DNA of 46,784 nucleotides, taken from the IMG/VR virus record IMGVR_UViG_3300012942_000011, positions 1 through 46,784 of that record, one strand, 5' to 3'. This document shows, piece after piece, positions 4,353 to 44,377 of this stretch; position 1 is the stretch's first letter, and the number at the start of each line of letters is the position of its first letter. Made by a program: the position numbers and the translations under genes. This stretch comes from a virus (lineage: Duplodnaviria; Caudoviricetes). The notes beneath the pieces were generated by a model. The model was not told the origin of the DNA. It ran no database searches and saw only the letters and a program-made list of their open reading frames with translations.

Positions 4353-4423
4353 GCCTTAGTAGCTCAATAGTAGAGCATTCCGTTGAAGCCGGAAGGACAG
4401 AGGAGCATAACCTTTCTAAGGCA
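4353..4423 (+). tRNA. tRNA-Phe(GAA), atypical T-loop
   Basis: Acceptor GCCTTAG/CTAAGGC, D stem GCTC/GAGC, anticodon stem TTCCG/CGGAA with loop TTGAAGC, T arm AGAGG-AGCATAA-CCTTT. Confidence 0.8.
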
Positions 4424-4424
4424 C

Positions 4425-4571
4425 ATGAAGTTTAAGCGAAAAAATCGCATCAGCAATACTGCAAAGAAGTGCTCCATCTGTGGTGGTCAACGCCGCCAGT
4501 TTGGATGGGGTACTCAAAAAGCAAAAGCACTCGAAAAGATTGCTAAACGCGAACATTCCCAAGTCGTCTAA
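4425..4571 (+). CDS. Small basic peptide between tRNAs (48 aa)
   Basis: ATG 2 nt after tRNA-Phe; MKFKRKNRISNTAKKCSICGGQRRQFGWG...; end overlaps tRNA-Gln 5' end. Confidence 0.5.
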   Translation: MKFKRKNRISNTAKKCSICGGQRRQFGWGTQKAKALEKIAKREHSQVV

Positions 4572-4627
4572 CGGTAGGACAGAGGCCTTTGGAGCCTAGA
4601 ATGTAGGTTCGACTCCTACTTTGGGAA
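4557..4627 (+). tRNA. tRNA-Gln(TTG)
   Basis: Acceptor TCCCAAG/TTTGGGA, anticodon loop CTTTGGA, canonical T arm GTAGG-TTCGACT-CCTAC. Confidence 0.9.
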
Positions 4628-4642
4628 CAGATATATACACGA

Positions 4643-22694: not shown

Positions 22695-25541
22695 ATGGCA
22701 AAGATTACTCTAGACCTGACAGGCTCCGCTGGACTCGCATCGAAGTTCATGGGAGACCTCAACGATACCACAGCGCAGCCGCAACTGCGTTATATTGCTG
22801 AGGCTGGGCAGGTTGCTGACGGTATCTACGACCCACTTCGCGTTGAAGGCTATATGTCTCCTGCGAACAATACTTACACAGCATTGACTGGGACTATCAC
22901 TGATGAGTATATCGCAAAGGTATATTCTGCATCTCAAAATACTGTCTATCTTGCTGAAAAAGGTGTGAATATGGGGACACTGTCAGGTCTCGATGATACT
23001 TCTGTTACTGAGACAGCGTTCTTTACTGAGAACTCTCGCTTCCGCGATTTGCGTCAATACGAGATTAACGACCAAGAAGCAATCTTCTATCCTTGGATAA
23101 AAGATACTCCTACGACAAGCAGCGTACCGAATGTATACCTCGGCTACAAGGCTGTGAATCCTGCTCGCGGTGCTTTTCAAATTGCATCTGTTGTCTCTGA
23201 AACACTTTCAATAGACGAGCAATACGGAGAGCTAATTGCAAGTACTGGATATCAAGCTCTCGGAGAAGAGTTTTCAACTGGTGACTTCTTTACAGGAAAT
23301 CAAGCTCCTGTAACAGGACTTCGCGTGCGTCTCAATATGCCGTATGTCGGTACAACGCAGTCATGGACACTTCAAGTAGGTATCCAGACAGATAGTGCAA
23401 GCGCACCGAGCGGTACATTTGTTACTGGAGCTGTAGTAAACATTGACCCGAACGACCTACCACAAGGCGATTACGACTATGTGTATGTAACCTTTAATGA
23501 CACAGTTTATCTTGACCCGGGAACTGTCTATCACATCGTTGTTCAACCGCAAACATATGGAGCACTTGGTGCTAATGAAGGTGTGTATTGGCTTCGCTCT
23601 GATGGCGGTAACTCTCTCTATACTGATGGACGAGCAGAAGTTAATAACGGTTCATGGAGCAACACATCAACATCAGAATCATTTGACTTCGCTATTATTC
23701 TCAATCGTTGGGACTATGTAGGAGACACGGAACGCGATACATCTATTCAGTTTGATAGTGCAGGTCAAGGAAGTGCTACTTCAGCAACGACACTCACTTA
23801 CACTCACACGACCACGCATGATGATAATCCAGGAATGTTTATCTTCTTTGCGATTAACACGACTTCAGACCATGCTACCGGAGTGACTGTTGATGGCGTA
23901 GCAGCTACATTCCTACAGAAAGTCGCAGATGCGTCAAACTACTACTATGCCTATTCTATTACAGGCGTAGGAGCGGGCGCACACTCAATCGTGATTACGC
24001 TTTCAAACGCGCATAACATTGACGCTATTAGCAACGCTTACTACGGAGTTAGCCAGACAGCAATGGTTAACTACTCTAGCTTCCTGACAAAGACAAGCTC
24101 CGGAACATACAACATCGGAACCTTTACAACCGGTGGAGAAATCTGGGTGGACTTTATCGCTACTCCAGGAGCTGTCTCAACAGGAACTGTCAATGCTACA
24201 CAGCGAGGGACGAATAGCAGCAATACTGCGATTAAGACATTTGATTCCGGTACTCCTAGCCCTGATGGCTCATTCAATCAAACCTGGACCTGTACTCCAG
24301 ACGCGACTTGGCGTAACTGCTTCATTCTCGTCAATCCAGCACTTGCCTCTTCGCTGCCGAATGTTCCGGGACTTACAGAAGGAGATGACGAAAGTATATT
24401 CTTGCACCCAGCACAGAACGGATTCTTGTATCTGTTCACTAACAACCGCGTGCATAAGTTTGACGGAGGTCTCACAGGAACATCATATGTTGATGGAATA
24501 AATCTTGACTCTGGTCTACAAACTCCAGGCATCTTGTCTCCCGATGTTCTCTTGTTCCCGTCCTATATGCGAACAGTTGACTGCGTGGACTATAACAGCA
24601 TGGCGTATATCGCTATTGAATCATCAGACGCAAGTGAACCTGACACGAGAACATTCCCAGCTAATATCTGCGGTGTTTATTCTTGGGACTATCAGTCTAT
24701 TCTCTCTACGATTCGCAACTTCCAACCTTGTCCAGGAGCCAGGAACATTAAGCGTATCTTCCTAAACAATGACGGAGATATTCGCCTCATCACAGTAAAC
24801 AATAACCGCTTTACTGAAGTTCGCGGACTTGTGAATGGAAACTTTGAAGTGCTGTTTACGCTCGGTGTAGACGCATATCCTATCTATCGAGATGCGCTTG
24901 ACTACCTCGATAACATGGTTGTGTGGCTCGGTAAAGACGGAAATACTTACGCACTTGGTAAAGCAACTAAGGGCGGTAAGGAAGGCATTTTCAAGATTGG
25001 TACCATCTCAGGTCTCAAAGGAAGTGCTGATAGTATCACTTCAGATATCATCGTTACAGGATTCAATCTTGCGTCTCAACAGCGAGATGGAATTCTCGTA
25101 GCATACAAGACTACTGATGACGATGTAGATACGAATAAGCTAGCTCGCTGGTATCCTCACGGAACTGGAACGATTGACACAGTTGCACAGAAGCCGAATG
25201 CTGGCGGAGTGTTCTCAACAGTGCTCATGTTCCCAACGCTTGCAAAGGTCAATTACATTCGTGTATTCCATGCTCCGGTCGGTAGTAGTGGAACGACTGT
25301 TAAAGGAACTATCGCTACATATGTCAATCAATCAACAACACCAGCGAGAACTGATAATGTTACTGCACTCCTTATCAAGAAAGGATATCAGTATGTCAAA
25401 CTCGGTCAGGCTCTTACAAGTGCTGTATTCGCACTTCAATTCCAACTCAACTGGACTACAAGCCAAACGCTAGACCAAAACGCGGATTGGATGCCTCGCT
25501 TTGTTGAAGTAGATTACGATGAGCTTACAAAACTCTTCTAA
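22695..25541 (+). CDS. Large tail protein (nozzle/stabilization-like with inserted beta-sandwich domains)
   Basis: 948 aa, beta-rich, in podovirus tail position. Confidence 0.6.
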   Translation: MAKITLDLTGSAGLASKFMGDLNDTTAQPQLRYIAEAGQVADGIYDPLRVEGYMSPANNTYTALTGTITDEYIAKVYSASQNTVYLAEKGVNMGTLSGLDDTSVTETAFFTENSRFRDLRQYEINDQEAIFYPWIKDTPTTSSVPNVYLGYKAVNPARGAFQIASVVSETLSIDEQYGELIASTGYQALGEEFSTGDFFTGNQAPVTGLRVRLNMPYVGTTQSWTLQVGIQTDSASAPSGTFVTGAVVNIDPNDLPQGDYDYVYVTFNDTVYLDPGTVYHIVVQPQTYGALGANEGVYWLRSDGGNSLYTDGRAEVNNGSWSNTSTSESFDFAIILNRWDYVGDTERDTSIQFDSAGQGSATSATTLTYTHTTTHDDNPGMFIFFAINTTSDHATGVTVDGVAATFLQKVADASNYYYAYSITGVGAGAHSIVITLSNAHNIDAISNAYYGVSQTAMVNYSSFLTKTSSGTYNIGTFTTGGEIWVDFIATPGAVSTGTVNATQRGTNSSNTAIKTFDSGTPSPDGSFNQTWTCTPDATWRNCFILVNPALASSLPNVPGLTEGDDESIFLHPAQNGFLYLFTNNRVHKFDGGLTGTSYVDGINLDSGLQTPGILSPDVLLFPSYMRTVDCVDYNSMAYIAIESSDASEPDTRTFPANICGVYSWDYQSILSTIRNFQPCPGARNIKRIFLNNDGDIRLITVNNNRFTEVRGLVNGNFEVLFTLGVDAYPIYRDALDYLDNMVVWLGKDGNTYALGKATKGGKEGIFKIGTISGLKGSADSITSDIIVTGFNLASQQRDGILVAYKTTDDDVDTNKLARWYPHGTGTIDTVAQKPNAGGVFSTVLMFPTLAKVNYIRVFHAPVGSSGTTVKGTIATYVNQSTTPARTDNVTALLIKKGYQYVKLGQALTSAVFALQFQLNWTTSQTLDQNADWMPRFVEVDYDELTKLF

Positions 25542-31785: not shown

Positions 31786-31856
31786 GTCTCCATAGTTTAG
31801 TGGTAAAACAACTTCCTTGTAAGAAGTAGACCTCAGTTCGATTCTGAGTGGAGGCT
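31786..31856 (+). tRNA. tRNA-Thr(TGT)
   Basis: Acceptor GTCTCCA/TGGAGGC, anticodon arm ACTTC-CTTGTAA-GAAGT, T arm CTCAG-TTCGATT-CTGAG. Confidence 0.92.
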
Positions 31857-31862
31857 CTTGAG

Positions 31863-31905: not shown

Positions 31906-31911
31906 ATACAT

Positions 31912-32192
31912 AGGTTAGAAGTGAGTAGTTGGAGGGAAGCAGCTACGGCGGGACGCCTTACATTCCAAGCAAGCGGGGACGGCGGGATTACGCCTCTGTT
32001 GTAAGATACGCGCCACCGAGAGCCGCCCTGGTACTTTATTACTGTTATCTTGTCCACTCAATCCAAGAGGTTGTCCCAGCAACTTCCCAGTAATAAGCAC
32101 CTTGTATTTTCAACCGGCGAGGGGTGCGCCCGGTTGGGTTTCATGCTCGGTGAGTACTTCTCTGCAACTGTTCGTTTCAGAACAGTTCTAAC
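31912..32192 (+). ncRNA. Candidate structured RNA A (leader of SSB gene)
   Basis: Nested stems: 31914-20/32186-92, 31927-39/32157-69, 31957-62/32000-05, 32036-44/32088-96, 32111-17/32130-36. Confidence 0.6.
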
Positions 32193-32209
32193 ATCACAAA
32201 CATCACAAC

Positions 32210-33224: not shown

Positions 33225-33481
33225 TGGCTGATGGCGGAATTAAGATGGCTAGCCTTGAGGACAACAAAGAAATAGGTCTCAAGATTCTAGACAACTATAT
33301 CGAAGACAATGAGCGAACGATTAACGAAGAGCGAAAAGCGAGAGAGGAAGAGGAACAACAACCGGAAGATGATAGTCCGGGGACGGTCGATATTCAACCT
33401 AGTGAGGATAAAGCTCCAGAAAGCAAAGGAAGCAAGTTCCAAGAGCTTCTAAACGAAAAGTTATCCGCACCCGAACAGTAG
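33224..33481 (+). CDS. Acidic hypothetical protein
   Basis: TAATG stop-start overlap. Confidence 0.65.
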   Translation: MADGGIKMASLEDNKEIGLKILDNYIEDNERTINEERKAREEEEQQPEDDSPGTVDIQPSEDKAPESKGSKFQELLNEKLSAPEQ

Positions 33482-33515
33482 TTGAGTTCCGGGTTCACAT
33501 CTTATATTATGTGAA
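33461..33515 (+). promoter_or_regulatory. Promoter with forward DnaA-like box and operator-like inverted repeat
   Basis: TTATCCGCA (33461), TTGAGT-17nt-TATTAT, TTCACAT/ATGTGAA flanking the -10. Confidence 0.55.
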
Positions 33516-33594: not shown

Positions 33595-33626
33595 AAAGAG
33601 GTCTAGCTTCGGCTAGGCCTTTTTGT
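33595..33626. terminator. Intrinsic terminator, possibly bidirectional
   Basis: AAAGAGGTCTAGC-TTCG-GCTAGGCCTTTTT. Confidence 0.75.
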
Positions 33627-34009: not shown

Positions 34010-34052
34010 TGTGTATAACTCAGTTTGAGATTTAACGTATATTCTATATAAT
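34010..34052 (+). promoter_or_regulatory. DnaA-box promoter P2 (leaderless transcript predicted)
   Basis: TGTGTATAA-6nt-TTGAGA-16nt-TATAAT, ATG 6 nt later. Confidence 0.75.
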
Positions 34053-34058
34053 AATTAT

Positions 34059-34367
34059 ATGGATACTATCGGTTCAATACTGGAACGGTACCAGAAAGCG
34101 AAGTCAGAAGAGAAACCTGCACCTCACGAAAAAGCAGCAGCAGTAAATGAAATCATTTCATTACTTGGAGAGTCAAAAGCATACGATTACAAATACTGGC
34201 TTGTTCGTGTAGGTAGTGCCTCGTACTCAACTGTTTTAGGAATAGTGAAAGCTGCTAAAGATATGCCTCGTGAGATGCGTGGAGGGTATATCACAAATCA
34301 ACTAAAGCCATACGCAGTTAAAAAGCCTAGAAAGAAAAAAGATGCTAGACCAACAGATTCGAAATAG
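34059..34367 (+). CDS. Hypothetical protein (possible replication/initiation accessory)
   Basis: First gene after the large non-coding region; function unknown. Confidence 0.7.
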   Translation: MDTIGSILERYQKAKSEEKPAPHEKAAAVNEIISLLGESKAYDYKYWLVRVGSASYSTVLGIVKAAKDMPREMRGGYITNQLKPYAVKKPRKKKDARPTDSK

Positions 34368-34716
34368 ACGCATACGTCAACAATACGCAGACGGAAAGAG
34401 TGTCAAGGACCTTGCCGCTAAGGAAGGCTTGTCTGAAGAACGAATCAGGCAAATCATCCGAGCAAAGAACCTGAATGACTTTTACCGAGACATCGAAGAG
34501 AAATACAAGCACACGCTTTCGGAGGCTGATTACAATTGGCTCAAAGAGGAGATTGCTTATCTATCTGAAAACAATCGAAACAAGGAGCTGGTTATTAGGC
34601 GGCGTGTCCTTGTACGTTATCTTCACGACAAACTCGGATACCCGTTCTACCGGATAGGACAGCTTCTTAATCGTCATCACACTACCGTTATGAATCTTTA
34701 CTACGACAAAGTATGA
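34342..34716 (+). CDS. Dual-HTH regulator: Mor/sigma4-like HTH plus DnaA domain IV-like domain
   Basis: RNRRIRQQYADGKSVKDLAAKEGLSEERIRQII and RNKELVIRRRVLVRYLHDKLGYPFYRIGQLLNRHHTTV (cf. DnaA ...PRQ.AM.L...S..EIG..F.GRDHTTV). Confidence 0.75.
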   Translation: MLDQQIRNRRIRQQYADGKSVKDLAAKEGLSEERIRQIIRAKNLNDFYRDIEEKYKHTLSEADYNWLKEEIAYLSENNRNKELVIRRRVLVRYLHDKLGYPFYRIGQLLNRHHTTVMNLYYDKV

Positions 34717-34940: not shown

Positions 34941-35204
34941 ATGGACGAACACGACCTAGTCCTCTCTATTCAAACACCGGATGGTAACGAGTTATCTCGC
35001 AATCCATTCGATGAAGGCAAGTTGGTTCTCTTGATGCGTATCGGTCCTGATACGTATGCTATGCAACTCAACATTGAAAATAGAAGTCAACTTTACGAAG
35101 ACTTCTTGAAGCAAGTTGATGCGATATTACAAGCAAAGAATAGTAATCAAACCGACGATGAGCAGCGAACAGACAGCAGCGAGGGGCGCCGAAGCCTTTC
35201 GTAA
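34941..35204 (+). CDS. Hypothetical protein
   Basis: ORF in gene run. Confidence 0.6.
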   Translation: MDEHDLVLSIQTPDGNELSRNPFDEGKLVLLMRIGPDTYAMQLNIENRSQLYEDFLKQVDAILQAKNSNQTDDEQRTDSSEGRRSLS

Positions 35205-35673
35205 GCACGAAAAGATTATCGAGAACGAGAAACTCCGCCGAGACCTCATGGCGGAAAATGCAAAGCTTCTCGATGAGATGCACAACGAGAAGTACTATAA
35301 AGATATTCTAGGCGACCCGGATGGCGAATGGGCAGGATATCTAGGTTCTCTTGATGTGTTCTATACGCGTTCTAAAGTACATCAACTTCGTACCGCATAC
35401 CAGCGTCTCACGATTAAGCTCGGTATTCCTCAAGGTGCATGGGCGCAAGTTCCTCTTACGCGTCTCATAGATGCACTTCCTGTCATTGACGGAACAAACT
35501 ATGTTGACTGGTTTACAAAAGCTGTAACGCTAACTACACGCGACTGGAATGCTGAGTTGCGTGGAGCTAAAGGTCTTCCTGTAGAAGACGACGGGCACGA
35601 GCATTCGGATAAGTTGTACGAGATTTGTACTGTTTGCGGTCGAAAAGAGCCTCATCACGAGCATGATTCCTAA
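35158..35673 (+). CDS. Hypothetical helical protein
   Basis: ORF in gene run; C-terminal CTVCG. Confidence 0.65.
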   Translation: MSSEQTAARGAEAFRKHEKIIENEKLRRDLMAENAKLLDEMHNEKYYKDILGDPDGEWAGYLGSLDVFYTRSKVHQLRTAYQRLTIKLGIPQGAWAQVPLTRLIDALPVIDGTNYVDWFTKAVTLTTRDWNAELRGAKGLPVEDDGHEHSDKLYEICTVCGRKEPHHEHDS

Positions 35674-36321: not shown

Positions 36322-36364
36322 TGTGGATAACTAAGTTTGAGGAATCGCACCGGCCGGTTATAAT
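36322..36364 (+). promoter_or_regulatory. DnaA-box promoter P3
   Basis: TGTGGATAA-6nt-TTGAGG-16nt-TATAAT. Confidence 0.78.
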
Positions 36365-36370
36365 TATCGA

Positions 36371-36710
36371 AGAGGTTAGGAAACACAGACCAACGACTTT
36401 CTGGTACTAGCTGGAAATATCGTCAGGTACTTGCAACACCGAGAAACCGACCGGACGCATTTAAGTCCCACTCTCGCGCTGACGCATTACTGCCTAACTT
36501 CTAGAACCTGTTCTTTGAAATCTCAGTCGGGGAAAGTTACTTGTCTCTCCCCCGCGACCATCATATTACTGATAGTGGCATAAGCTAGAGGAAACCGTCC
36601 TTGCAAGGACCTAGTACAGAGGCGTGTCAGTCAGTCTACGAACTCAATCCTTCGCGCGGGAGATACTATTGTAGAGCTAAGGTAATGTGGCCGGGGAGAG
36701 GCAAGCAACT
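36371..36710 (+). ncRNA. Candidate structured leader RNA B of the que/dpdA operon
   Basis: Stems 36371-80/36493-502, 36535-52/36693-710, 36562-70/36681-89; palindrome 36597-610. Confidence 0.6.
36509..36520 (+). promoter_or_regulatory. boxA-like antitermination element
   Basis: TGTTCTTTGAAA, single-stranded between two structured domains. Confidence 0.55.
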
Positions 36711-36727
36711 GACCTCAGGAGGATTGT

Positions 36728-37441
36728 ATGATTAAGGTGAACGAAATCTTCGGCCCGACAGTTCAGGGCGAAGGCAAGTCCGCCGGGCGTCCAGTTGCTT
36801 TCCTGCGACTGGCTCTCTGCAACTTGCACTGCATCTGGTGTGATACTCCGCATACTTGGAACTGGGTTGGTACGCAATTCGCTCATCCCGAAAAGTTCCA
36901 GTTCGAGAACGAAGTACACGCTATGACGGACGATGAAATATTCGACCGTCTCACGCAGACCGGAATGGATGCTCTCGTCATTTCTGGCGGCGAGCCTCTA
37001 ATCCAGCAGAAACAACTCGTTCCACTCCTTCGGAAACTGAAAGCCAGCAACTGGTGGGTCGAAATCGAGACCAACGGGACTATTCCTCCTCGTGAGGACC
37101 TCGTTCAACTCATCGACCAAATCAACTGCTCGCCGAAGCTTTCCCATTCGCTCGACCCACTGAAACTTCGCATTCGGGAAACCGCGCTTCATGCGCTGGC
37201 TAATGAACCGAAAGTGAACTTTAAGTTCGTCGTACGGAATAACGAAGACATCGACGAAGCACTCGGAATCATCTCGCAGTACGGTCTTGACCGGCGTGAG
37301 GTGCGACTGATGCCCGAATGTCGGACTAAGGAGGAGCTACTCGCCAAGGAGCTTTGGCTCCAAAAAGAGTGCGCGGTACGAGGAATGATTTACTGCACTC
37401 GCCTTTCCATTCTCCAGGCTGGGACAGAGCGCGGTGTTTGA
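36728..37441 (+). CDS. queE: 7-carboxy-7-deazaguanine synthase (radical SAM)
   Basis: EIFGPTVQGEG, CNLHCIWCDT (CxxxCxxC), SGGEP, IETNGT, SPKL. Confidence 0.95.
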   Translation: MIKVNEIFGPTVQGEGKSAGRPVAFLRLALCNLHCIWCDTPHTWNWVGTQFAHPEKFQFENEVHAMTDDEIFDRLTQTGMDALVISGGEPLIQQKQLVPLLRKLKASNWWVEIETNGTIPPREDLVQLIDQINCSPKLSHSLDPLKLRIRETALHALANEPKVNFKFVVRNNEDIDEALGIISQYGLDRREVRLMPECRTKEELLAKELWLQKECAVRGMIYCTRLSILQAGTERGV

Positions 37442-37443
37442 TT

Positions 37444-37479
37444 GGATAGGCGGTCCTAAACCCGCCGCCTATCCTTTTT
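37444..37479 (+). terminator. Intrinsic terminator between queE and queD
   Basis: GGATAGGCGG-loop-CCGCCTATCC-TTTTT. Confidence 0.8.
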
Positions 37480-37497
37480 GTACTTAAAACTTTACTT

Positions 37498-37935
37498 ATG
37501 CTTGTAACGAAACAGATAGAAATCGACATGGGGCATCGCGTCCCGAATCACAAATCAAAGTGTCGAAGTCCTCACGGACACCGCTACAAGATTGAAGTAG
37601 GAGTTGACGATAAGCTCATTTCTGACAACAAAGCATCTGATTACGCGATGGTTATCGATTTTGGAGACCTCAAGGAAATCATGATGCAAGAGATTGATGC
37701 TGTGTACGACCATTCGTATACTCTCTGGGAGAAAGATGAAGATAAAGCTCTATGGATGGCTTGGAAAGACCGGGGGTACAAAGTCAATCTTACTCAAGAG
37801 CCTCCAACAGCAGAGTTCCTCGCAGTCTTGTGGTATCACATCTTGAAAGAGAAGCTCGAAGAGCGCAAGATTAAAATCGCACACGTTACCGTGTGGGAGA
37901 CACCTACTAGCACAGCAACTTACACAGGCGTATGA
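37498..37935 (+). CDS. queD: 6-carboxytetrahydropterin synthase
   Basis: GHR...KCRSPHGHRY, MVIDFGDLK, PTAE, VWETPTS. Confidence 0.95.
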   Translation: MLVTKQIEIDMGHRVPNHKSKCRSPHGHRYKIEVGVDDKLISDNKASDYAMVIDFGDLKEIMMQEIDAVYDHSYTLWEKDEDKALWMAWKDRGYKVNLTQEPPTAEFLAVLWYHILKEKLEERKIKIAHVTVWETPTSTATYTGV

Positions 37936-38090
37936 TATACATTCTTTCTCTAGCAGCCGGTCTTATTCTCGGAGCAATCTTTGCTTTCTTTAAGCTACCG
38001 ATTCCAGCACCTAGTACTCTTGCTGGCGTTGTAGGAATTGCAGGTGTTACAATAGGTTATCTGCTCGTAATGCGTAGCCCACTATGGTAG
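37932..38090 (+). CDS. XapX/DUF1427-like small membrane protein (52 aa, not in ORF track)
   Basis: MIYILSLAAGLILGAIFAFFKLPIPAPSTLAGVVGIAGVTIGYLL; overlaps both neighbours. Confidence 0.8.
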   Translation: MIYILSLAAGLILGAIFAFFKLPIPAPSTLAGVVGIAGVTIGYLLVMRSPLW

Positions 38091-38659
38091 CAATTGTCAA
38101 AGAATACACTGTAGAGGATACTGTCCGTCAGATGCTTTTTGCGATGGGCGTGGACCTTGAAGATGAGAACTTCAAAGATACTCCTAAGCGTGTAGCAAAA
38201 GCATTCGGAGAGATTCTCAAGTGGCAAGACGACAACGACCGCAAGAACTTCCTACTGTCTATCAAAGACAAATCGTTCCCTACTTCTTATGGCGGCATTG
38301 TTGCACAGAAACGCATCAAAGCCGTAAGCATGTGTCCTCATCACATGCAACCTATCCACTACGAAATCGATATCGGTTACGTAGCGGAAGACCGAGCACT
38401 CGGTCTATCGAAAATCACTCGTATCGCTGAAGCTTTAGCGGCACGAATGGTATTACAAGAGACACTCACTGATGACATTGCGGATTTCTTCGAGAAGGAA
38501 ATTAACACGAAAGGCGTGATTGTTATCGTTCGTGGTAAGCACGGATGTATGACAAATCGCGGAGTCAAGCAAGAAATTGTAACGACTACCTCTTCTGTTC
38601 GTGGACTCTTTGAAGACGATGCGCCTCTCCGGCAGGAGTTTCTAACACTTAATTCTTAA
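38084..38659 (+). CDS. folE: GTP cyclohydrolase I
   Basis: DTPKRVAK, SMCPHH, GLSKITR, LQETLT, HGCMTNRGV. Confidence 0.95.
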   Translation: MVAIVKEYTVEDTVRQMLFAMGVDLEDENFKDTPKRVAKAFGEILKWQDDNDRKNFLLSIKDKSFPTSYGGIVAQKRIKAVSMCPHHMQPIHYEIDIGYVAEDRALGLSKITRIAEALAARMVLQETLTDDIADFFEKEINTKGVIVIVRGKHGCMTNRGVKQEIVTTTSSVRGLFEDDAPLRQEFLTLNS

Positions 38660-38662
38660 TGT

Positions 38663-39367
38663 ATGTCTAAGACTGTCGTTGTAGTATCGGGCGGAATGGA
38701 TTCAGTTACTCTCTTGCACAAAGTTGCTAAGGAGGTTGGTTCTGATAACGTTAAAGCTATTTCATTTGACTACGGTCAGGTTCACAAGAAGGAACTCCAG
38801 ATGGCTGCTGAGCAGTGCTGGCGCCTCGGCATTGACCACAAAGTAGTTGATATCACGAATCTTAACGAGCTTCTTCCAAGTGCCCTTACAGGAACTGAGG
38901 AAGTACCGCAAGGCCATTACGAGAGCGAGAGCATGAAGAAGACTGTCGTGCCGTTCCGTAACTCGATTATGAGTACAATTGCTCTCGGATATGCAGCAGG
39001 ACTCGGTTACGATAGAATTGCTCTCGGTGTTCATTCCGGCGACCATTATATCTATCCTGACTGCCGTCCTGAGTTTATTGCTGCCCTTTCAGAGCTTGCT
39101 CGCCTCGGAGACTTCAATCCGATTGATGTGTATACTCCTTACCTTAACGCTGATAAGACAGCTATTATTGCGGAAGGTATAGAACTTGGAGTTGATTACT
39201 CAAAGACCTGGACTTCGTATTCAGGCGGTGATGTACCTGATTTCAAGACAGGCTCATCTGTAGAGCGCACACAAGCCTTTATCGCAAATGGTATCAAGGA
39301 CCCACTCTACACCGATGAACAGTGGGAGGAGGCTAAGGCATACGCTGAAAGCGTAGAGAAGGAGTAG
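38663..39367 (+). CDS. queC: 7-cyano-7-deazaguanine synthase
   Basis: SGGMDS, FDYGQ, VPFRN, YPDCRPEF; the usual C-terminal Zn Cys cluster is replaced (TWTSY...GSSVER). Confidence 0.93.
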   Translation: MSKTVVVVSGGMDSVTLLHKVAKEVGSDNVKAISFDYGQVHKKELQMAAEQCWRLGIDHKVVDITNLNELLPSALTGTEEVPQGHYESESMKKTVVPFRNSIMSTIALGYAAGLGYDRIALGVHSGDHYIYPDCRPEFIAALSELARLGDFNPIDVYTPYLNADKTAIIAEGIELGVDYSKTWTSYSGGDVPDFKTGSSVERTQAFIANGIKDPLYTDEQWEEAKAYAESVEKE

Positions 39368-39368
39368 T

Positions 39369-39554
39369 ATGGATGACGGACTTGATAAAGGCCACATGAA
39401 TCTGCTCGTAGACCTAGAATTGGTCCTTGCAGAAGCACGCGCAAAAGAGTATCACGATTTCGAGAACGAGACCTATGCTACTCCAAAGATGGAGTTAGTT
39501 CGTAAGCTCGAAAGCATCATTAACAACACGAAGAACGGTAAATACGATAACTAG
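39369..39554 (+). CDS. Hypothetical phage protein
   Basis: EYHDFENETYATPKMELV; TAG-T-ATG junction. Confidence 0.7.
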   Translation: MDDGLDKGHMNLLVDLELVLAEARAKEYHDFENETYATPKMELVRKLESIINNTKNGKYDN

Positions 39555-39557
39555 CCT

Positions 39558-40046
39558 ATGTCTGATACATCAAGTCTAACAAAGCTCGGTTCTGGTAAGA
39601 CCGATTACGACTTCTCGAAAGGACCTTCGCAAGAGATTCTAGAGACCTTCGATAATCAGCATCCAGACCAGTGCTACCTCGTTCCTTTCACTATGGAGCG
39701 TGATGAGTTTACGTCACTTTGCCCGAAGACCGGACAGCCTGACCAAGCTCGAATGGAAGTAGTCTATGTACCGCGCAAGAAGATGGTTGAATCGAAGTCA
39801 CTCAAGCTCTACTTCTTCTCGTTCCGCAACACAGGCGAGTTCCATGAAGATGTGGTAAATCGTATCGCAAAAGACCTCGTAGCAGTGCTACAACCGGCAT
39901 ATCTCCGCGTGTATGGCGACTTTGCCCCTCGTGGTGGGCTTGCTATTAAGCCAATGGTTGAGCATATGGACGACGAGGCTCACAACAACGAAGAACAGCG
40001 CGAATATATCTTTGGACTCGTAAGTCGTTTCGACGCAAAGAAATAG
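39558..40046 (+). CDS. queF: preQ0 reductase (unimodular QueF)
   Basis: EFTSLCPKTGQPD, QueF motif ESKSLKLY, FHE, PRGG. Confidence 0.93.
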   Translation: MSDTSSLTKLGSGKTDYDFSKGPSQEILETFDNQHPDQCYLVPFTMERDEFTSLCPKTGQPDQARMEVVYVPRKKMVESKSLKLYFFSFRNTGEFHEDVVNRIAKDLVAVLQPAYLRVYGDFAPRGGLAIKPMVEHMDDEAHNNEEQREYIFGLVSRFDAKK

Positions 40047-40047
40047 C

Positions 40048-40917
40048 ATGAACCTGTACTTCGCTTCAAGTCCTAGTAGGATTCATATTGGTGTCCTCAA
40101 AGAGAACAAGGCGAAGAACTTGCTATTCTCTTACGCGTTTATCAAGAGGCCCGAAAAGCTGATTGAACTAATCGTAGGAGACGGTACGAGACTCCCAGAA
40201 AGAATTATTCTGGACTCAGGTGCCTTCTCAGTTTGGTCTAAAGGTGATACCGTATCACTTGATGACTACGCTGAGTTCTGTGTCAGGTTTAAGGAGCTAC
40301 TCCCGCCTGGCATAGAGCTGAACGTAGTGAACTTGGATGTGCTTCCAGGTAAGTGGGGATTCGTCCCTACAGCTGAACAGATTGCAGAGAGTGCTGAGAA
40401 AGGCTGGCAAAATATGCTACACCTAGAAAGCCTCGGCTTGAAAGTGATTCATGTGTTCCATCAACACGAAGACTTTGCTATCCTTGAACGCCTAGCAAAG
40501 CATTCCGATTACATTGGAATCTCGCCAGCAAACGATGTCTCAATCCAGCAGAAGCTCGATTGGCTTAACAAAGTATTCTTATATCTCAAAGATGGAACTA
40601 AAACTCATGGTTTCGCCGTTACTAGCCATAAGCAGTTACTCGGATACCCATTCTATTCAGTTGATAGCAGTTCTTGGGTTACTCCTGCTCGCTTTGGCCG
40701 TATTGCTGTCTTTACTGATAGGTACGAAATAAAAACCTTCCCGTATAAGTCTCAGTCCGATGTAGAGAAGTACTGGCCGTACATTTCTAACATCGGCATG
40801 GCGAAGATTGCACACCCTCGTTGGGAGGACCGTGTATCTATTGCTATTCGTGCGTACCAGAAACTCGAAGAGGTTGCTACGAAGATATGGGCTTCTAGAG
40901 GAGTTACTTGGACTTAG
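40048..40917 (+). CDS. dpdA: TGT-fold 7-deazaguanine DNA transglycosylase (phage DpdA-like)
   Basis: ILDSGAFS, NLDVL, HVFH, THGFA, SVDSSSW; terminal gene of the que cluster. Confidence 0.82.
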   Translation: MNLYFASSPSRIHIGVLKENKAKNLLFSYAFIKRPEKLIELIVGDGTRLPERIILDSGAFSVWSKGDTVSLDDYAEFCVRFKELLPPGIELNVVNLDVLPGKWGFVPTAEQIAESAEKGWQNMLHLESLGLKVIHVFHQHEDFAILERLAKHSDYIGISPANDVSIQQKLDWLNKVFLYLKDGTKTHGFAVTSHKQLLGYPFYSVDSSSWVTPARFGRIAVFTDRYEIKTFPYKSQSDVEKYWPYISNIGMAKIAHPRWEDRVSIAIRAYQKLEEVATKIWASRGVTWT

Positions 40918-40918
40918 A

Positions 40919-40961
40919 TGTGGATAACTGAGTTGTGAAGATTAGGCTTCTAACATATCAT
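40919..40961 (+). promoter_or_regulatory. DnaA-box promoter P4
   Basis: TGTGGATAA-5nt-TTGTGA-17nt-TATCAT. Confidence 0.72.
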
Positions 40962-43819: not shown

Positions 43820-43862
43820 TGTGGATAACTCAGTTGTGTTTAGTACGATAATTTCATATATT
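43820..43862 (+). promoter_or_regulatory. DnaA-box promoter P5
   Basis: TGTGGATAA-5nt-TTGTGT-17nt-TATATT; hairpin GGGTG/CACCC at the predicted +1. Confidence 0.72.
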
Positions 43863-44089: not shown

Positions 44090-44377
44090 ATGGAAACTAT
44101 CACTAAGCCTCACAACCCTTTCACGGGAACTGTTTACTCAGGTGAGAATCTATATCGGCTTTCTGGTAATCCTTGTAAAGAATGGGCAACCTTTCTTCAG
44201 TGGAGCCAGAATGGTTTTAAGATAAAGAAAGGACAGAAAGGAACTCTTGTCACTCGGTTCATTCGTGAACAGAAGAAGAACAAGACTACTGGGAAGTTCG
44301 AGGAGGTCGAATCTATCCGTAACTATACAGTCTTCAACCGTACTCAGGTAGAGGAAAAGGCTGAGGACGATATCTAG
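44090..44377 (+). CDS. ArdC-like ssDNA-binding (anti-restriction N-terminal) domain protein
   Basis: NPFTGTVYSGEN...WATFLQW...KIKKGQKG...YTVFNRTQVE. Confidence 0.82.
   Translation: METITKPHNPFTGTVYSGENLYRLSGNPCKEWATFLQWSQNGFKIKKGQKGTLVTRFIREQKKNKTTGKFEEVESIRNYTVFNRTQVEEKAEDDI

Follow-up and report, generated by a model that had tools for sequence, protein, structure and literature searches.

A phage genome encodes an unusual protein in which two DNA readers, each well understood, are fused: a sigma70 region 4.2-type helix-turn-helix (HTH) and a DnaA domain IV-like HTH. The same genome has a matching, defined 43-bp promoter unit that places a DnaA box ahead of the -35 and -10 elements. Relatives of the fusion occur in more than 120 diverse clusters and, as far as the literature was searched, would form an undescribed family built from known parts. 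The precise 43-bp promoter unit makes the predicted target of the fusion sharply testable. Our reading, to which we give somewhat less than an even chance, is that the protein would act as a competitor or repressor on the box plus the -35 hexamer and shut off early promoters, including its own (P2).

The window (the whole stretch of DNA analysed, 46,784 nucleotides) is a whole phage record of 46.8 kb with direct terminal repeats, and its genes include those for a terminase, a portal and an endolysin. In one wastewater study, contigs contain short pieces of a close strain of this phage. A Shine-Dalgarno-like word is present at 6 of 68 hand-listed starts (background 12%), 45 of these 68 starts have T at -1, and the promoters are sigma70-type. 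The first gene of the P2 operon (34059..34367, + strand; 102 amino acids) has look-alike clusters whose members come from viruses or, for the most part, from Ca. Falkowbacteria (score 0.94). Because of these four features, the host is likely to belong to the Patescibacteria (ultra-small bacteria).

Architecture of the fusion protein

The 124-amino-acid ORF (34342..34716, + strand) contains both peptides that the earlier note had quoted in describing a two-headed protein. Its assignment is based on Pfam, on family profiles and on an AlphaFold model. The N-terminal head, a sigma70 region 4.2-type HTH, covers residues 1-42 (34342..34467, +) and the C-terminal, DnaA domain IV-like head covers residues 61-120 (34522..34701, +), stopping just past the recognition helix. 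Bac_DnaA_C (Pfam PF08299) matches residues 72-118 with an E value of 9.7e-7 and 29.2 bits, below the cut-off of 31.5. At the N-terminus, Pfam finds Mor (residues 3-41, E 0.0015), under cut-off and only over positions 57-94 of the 107 in the profile, as well as Sigma70_r4 (residues 12-40, E 0.0026). PHROGs gives weak matches of residues 2-43 to Mu-type late activators (E 6e-6 and 7e-5). As the earlier note had stated, there is no AAA+ domain: Pfam identifies neither domain III nor domain I, and 124 residues are too few for AAA+.

AlphaFold models the full-length fusion with a pLDDT of 83 and the isolated C-terminal head with a pLDDT of 92. For this head, Foldseek ranks the DNA-binding domain of Mycobacterium tuberculosis DnaA (3pvp) first, weakly (E 0.17, TM 0.68-0.70), with ParB close to it (TM 0.67), and VIA-align places Spo0J (Z 8.3) and KorB (Z 7.7) above DnaA (Z 6.1). 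Searches with the full-length fold are dominated by the N-terminal HTH and return no match at E<=0.001. Comparison with Mor by fold gives Z 5.6-5.7.

The protein family

Word-based searches recovered 11 and then 18 relatives. An exhaustive profile search yielded 215 proteins at E<=1e-10. From the best 150, 26 multi-repeat, fragmentary or extended proteins were left out and 124 were retained, which together with the query gives a set of 125. The family, which is uncharacterised, extends to no fewer than 124 further clusters at 50% identity, and the retained members cover just the two heads. A Cys/His zinc-finger-like linker is present in 72 of the 125 proteins and is missing from the window copy.

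The identity of both heads is clearest at this level. We used an alignment of 112 members (profile A4), which includes the homolog from a second phage, G053. Per member (E<=0.001), Sigma70_r4 and Bac_DnaA_C are each found in 81 of the 112 and Mor in four, and none of the 112 has a Pfam match to sigma regions 2 and 3. Apart from a single HTH-repeat entry (8vd6), the best 60 of the 65 PDB matches of the profile (E<=0.01) are all either sigma-factor region 4 (best E 1.1e-6) or DnaA domain IV (3pvp, E 9.3e-6; 8btg, 0.002; 1j1v, 0.004), with no Mor entry among these 60. The earlier note had proposed comparison with Bac_DnaA_C and Sigma70_r4, and both are thus matched by the family. Its description of the C-terminal half is borne out, homology of this head to DnaA domain IV being supported by the profiles. 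For the N-terminal half it had named Mor or sigma70 region 4; the sigma70 part stands and the Mor part does not, and the head is of the sigma70 region 4.2 type rather than Mor.

Several known proteins resemble the fusion in part. Mor and C of phage Mu are likewise small phage HTH regulators, with weak Pfam and PHROGs matches to the N-terminal HTH, but the Mor match is limited to the HTH part, and in the fusion this HTH is N-terminal and followed by a DnaA-type head. Stand-alone phage Bac_DnaA_C proteins (mostly viral clusters of 53-235 members) are also DnaA domain IV-like without AAA+, whereas the fusion family adds the conserved sigma4.2 head and, in many members, the zinc-finger-like linker. 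Two other phages (G109, L589:13788-14414, and G115, 33279-33491), both Shine-Dalgarno-poor and with one box promoter each, carry a different DnaA-IV fusion, that of G109 being a 209-amino-acid protein with DUF4406 and Bac_DnaA_C.

Close homologs with genome context were found neither in viral contigs nor in INPHARED phages. The metagenome contigs searched returned only the window itself, and GTDB genomes only six partial single-head matches. The open-access literature listings that were searched contain no description of a sigma4.2-DnaA-IV fusion, nor any report of DnaA-box promoters in Patescibacteria phages.

DNA-contact residues

The N-terminal head shares with sigma70 region 4.2 (RpoD/SigA, PF04545) an HTH of the form TLxEIGxxFxIT-ERVRQI, and its motif S-E-E-R-I-R-Q-I aligns with RpoD T583-I590. 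Within the 125 proteins, the equivalents of E585, R586, R588 and Q589 are retained in 114, 122, 113 and 118, respectively. That of R584 is kept in 10 and lost in 115, and is E in the window copy. The likeness to RpoD ends at I590: E591, A592, K593 and A594 are found in 0, 3, 11 and 2 proteins. Unlike sigma70, the fusion has no regions 2-3 and nothing conserved past I590 and, judged from its sequence, it cannot act as a sigma factor.

According to excerpts of PMC2613000, R584 and E585 of RpoD read -35 positions -31 (a C) and -33, respectively. C at -31 is present in none of the nine -35 hexamers of the two carrier phages, against 12 of 27 hand-picked from other records. The missing C matches the loss of R584, a weak agreement between sites that are not independent.

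DnaA domain IV binds TTATNCACA, which would be a candidate site for the fusion protein as well. In E. coli DnaA the box is read by R399, P423, D433, H434, T435 and H439 (excerpts of PMC7561715), and R399A and T435M abolish binding (excerpts of PMC5742627). The basic-loop Arg and HHTTV recognition helix pointed out in the earlier note hold for the equivalents of R399 (R79), H434 (H113) and T435 (T114), but P423 (Y103), D433 (H112) and H439 (N118) are changed, so that the window copy keeps three of the six base readers. The G053 homolog shares the HH..N helix variant. Across the 125 proteins mostly two to five of the six are kept, and all six in one; the R399 equivalent (the minor-groove Arg) is 96% conserved, D433 69% and H434 74%. 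The fusion has in common with DnaA domain IV (E. coli 1J1V, M. tuberculosis 3PVP) profile homology, the minor-groove Arg and the H-T of the recognition helix. Its model also resembles the four-helix HTH fold of this domain (TM 0.65-0.70), an ambiguous likeness given the ParB and KorB scores. It differs in having no domains I-III, in its truncation after this helix, in the three changed residues and in the added sigma4.2 head.

One possible main job for such a protein is to block host replication through the DnaA boxes at oriC. A domain IV without AAA+ could not form the initiator filament (excerpts of PMC7561715), and phages often carry Bac_DnaA_C as a protein by itself. The conserved sigma4.2 head, however, suggests promoters rather than origins, and the altered base readers should weaken affinity for canonical boxes. 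We regard this role as quite improbable.

Five promoter-like units with a DnaA box

Five promoter-like units of the window, all on the + strand and intergenic, have a box of the form TGTG[G/T]ATAA located 5-6 bp ahead of a TTG hexamer, with TANNNT exactly 28 bp downstream of the box in each case. P1 (31863..31905) consists of the box TGTGGATAA, 6 bp, TTGATA, 16 bp and TACAAT, and lies 304 bp before gene 32210. P2 (34010..34052) consists of the box TGTGTATAA (34010-34018), 6 bp, TTGAGA (34025-34030), 16 bp and TATAAT (34047-34052). P3 (36322..36364; box, 6 bp, TTGAGG, 16 bp, TATAAT) is upstream of a 7-deazaguanine DNA-modification cluster (36728-40917) with QueE, QueD, FolE, QueC, QueF/FolE-like and tRNA-ribosyltransferase-like (DpdA) genes. 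P4 (40919..40961; box, 5 bp, TTGTGA, 17 bp, TATCAT) is 23 bp before gene 40985. P5 (43820..43862; box, 5 bp, TTGTGT, 17 bp, TATATT) sits between a ParB-like gene and anti-restriction/exonuclease genes. An anti-restriction-like gene (44090-44377; phrog_7245, E 7e-9) is found early under P5.

Exact TGTGGATAA occurs four times in the window against 0.36 expected, a number reached in none of 100 shuffles, and the rough chance of five 28-bp box-to-TANNNT arrangements is about 2e-8, allowing for 30 spacers. All five boxes are in the non-structural arm (5954-31548 has none), and the three strongest sigma70-consensus promoters of the window each have a box. These observations uphold the earlier note on the reality of the five boxes and on the position of the fusion gene, which is the second ORF after P2. 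The -10 of P2 ends 6 bp ahead of the ATG at 34059 and its transcript is likely to be leaderless.

Host DnaA activates or represses by box occupancy at the promoters of nrdAB and dnaA and at lambda ori/pR (excerpts of PMC8203912). Compared with this, each of the five phage promoters has one box, whose distance from the -35 is fixed at 5-6 bp, and the window adds a phage-encoded candidate competitor.

The P1-P5 boxes are centred near -45, beside -35 hexamers that are non-consensus. Both features, together with the weak PHROGs matches to Mu-type late activators, would suit an activator that takes over from host DnaA, perhaps also from sigma region 4 (compare sigma appropriation), boosts P2-P5 and makes phage transcription independent of the state of host DnaA. 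We consider such an activator unlikely. A head placed on the -35 would shut out host sigma4, and the fusion gene itself needs P2 for its first expression. Moreover, the C-terminal part of sigma docks on core polymerase, and this part is missing from the family, in which conservation with RpoD stops at I590.

A number of other features of these regions were recorded. In four of the units, P2-P5, the end of the box and the palindrome AACTNAGTT overlap (palindrome at 34017-34025, 36329-36337, 40926-40934 and 43827-43835); the palindrome is found neither at P1 nor in G053 and elsewhere has no association with a -10. The extended word TGTGKATAACTNAGTT was rejected as a predictor of a -10 at +28 (5 of 89 unique sites elsewhere; missing from G053). 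A variable-spacer scan has no peak at 28 (6 of 121 sites), its highest count being 11 at spacer 30. The window contains no origin-like box cluster, with at most five loose matches per 500 bp. Upstream of P2, 33482-34009 (528 bp) is without a clear gene and has a hairpin and T-run near 33603-33624; its weak Rfam istR match (E 0.02) is below gathering, and it is possibly an ncRNA or an origin. No confident gene or Rfam family was identified in the P1 and P3 leaders (31906-32209, 304 bp, and 36365-36727, 363 bp). The window has tRNA-Phe (4353-4424), tRNA-Gln (4557-4628) and tRNA-Thr (31786-31857), and the P1 box starts 5 bp past the end of the last.

Distribution in other phages

We searched 80 records, including the window, picked from motif-based scans of viral contigs among the matches listed, for the layout (DnaA box, 5-7 bp, TTG, then -10). 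It is present in 67: the window has five copies, G053 four, G112 three, three records two (in one of which a single box is counted twice) and 61 records one, many of the records being fragments. Searches with Pfam PF08299 found 2 matches in a set of 48 motif-bearing records and none in a set of 47, and did not pick up the G053 homolog; family profiles were therefore used instead. With these, a full two-domain homolog was found in only one of the 79 other records, G053, which had been picked by its DNA motif alone (E 1.6e-28 with profile A2, from which the G053 protein was excluded). A further 43 records gave N-terminal-head matches only (6 of 43), and sigma4-like ERxRQI heads are frequent in unrelated phage proteins. 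Gene 32210, used as the query of a scan, gave no matches.

Among the records searched, layout promoters are most numerous in the two carriers. For the one other carrier to rank first of the 66 by layout count, the random expectation would be near 1 in 66; this is one comparison and no statistic, because the window and G053 share a module by descent. The gene downstream of the fusion gene (35116..35673, +) is 32% identical over 151 amino acids to that directly after the G053 fusion gene and, on these alignments, the fusion gene and this neighbour are a module common to both phages. The fusion proteins are about 30% identical, and boxes in G053 lie before QueE and after a ParB-like gene, the positions of P3 and P5 in the window. 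At about 22850-22895, G053 also has a promoter of consensus type (TTGATT/TATAAT) that is preceded, at a distance of 11 bp, by a perfect box in the reverse orientation.

The layout mostly occurs without the protein: 65 of the 66 other layout-bearing records, with one to three copies each, have no full homolog. These include six near-complete, Shine-Dalgarno-poor phages with one layout promoter (G018, G020, G026, G066, G080 and G107), as well as G112 with three (77% complete). Three complete structural-arm relatives of the window phage have neither boxes nor protein. The co-occurrence proposed as a check in the earlier note is thus seen in the top rank of both carriers and not in the layout as a whole. 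Its view of the protein as cognate regulator of the boxes gains from the four layout promoters that accompany the homolog in G053; a private pairing of protein and boxes, which this view implies, is not supported, given the records with layout and no protein.

One alternative is that host DnaA alone reads the boxes while the protein targets something else, such as an operator of late genes or of lysogeny, the co-occurrence then reflecting shared ancestry of the replication module. The many records with layout and no protein, including the six near-complete phages, agree with it, as do the three changed base readers of the window copy and the regulation of transcription by DnaA at nrdAB and at lambda (excerpts of PMC8203912). 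It accounts less well for the conserved R399 equivalent with an RDHT-type helix, and for the carriers ranking highest. We hold it to be doubtful, though deserving of some weight.

Possible mode of action

The repressor reading starts from the five observed same-strand, intergenic box, -35 and -10 units of the non-structural arm. Their layout would be a promoter type of the host lineage, with host DnaA normally its -45-centred activator; that many phages have the layout but not the protein makes host DnaA its likely default reader. As protein made from P2 accumulates, both heads would engage the box plus the -35. The bound protein would displace host DnaA and sigma region 4, so that RNA polymerase is blocked. 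Blocking is preferred to recruiting because the -35 would be covered without sigma regions 2-3 and nothing is conserved past I590; repression as the sign of regulation is what we infer from this. The outcome would be negative autoregulation and early-gene shut-off.

In favour of a repressor are the domain identity of both heads at the family level, their conserved DNA-contact residues, the weak agreement between R584 loss and the -35 hexamers, the full homolog in G053 beside four layout promoters, the P3/P5 positions kept between phages despite the divergence of the protein, the box at each of the three strongest consensus promoters, and the three complete relatives with neither boxes nor protein. 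Against it are the partial set of DnaA base readers in the window copy, the rival ParB/KorB folds, a co-occurrence drawn from two genomes that share the module by descent, G112 without a homolog, and the frequency of sigma4-like heads in unrelated phage proteins.

Host promoters of identical layout could also be targets. In an extension that we think unlikely, the family would fuse the host's two promoter readers and jam a whole promoter class, both phage early promoters and a Patescibacteria DnaA-box regulon. If true, this would imply host takeover or superinfection exclusion by promoter-architecture mimicry. Should the predicted binding itself be true, the DnaA box-plus-35 unit would be a functional promoter class of uncultured Patescibacteria and their phages, and the protein a phage regulator competing with DnaA and sigma simultaneously.

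A last observation concerns DNA modification. Both phages have a 7-deazaguanine cluster. GATC is wholly missing from the window (0 against 199 expected) and from G053 (0 against 113), which also has no TCGA (0 against 81 expected). Speculatively, modified guanines within the boxes could change DnaA-type binding.
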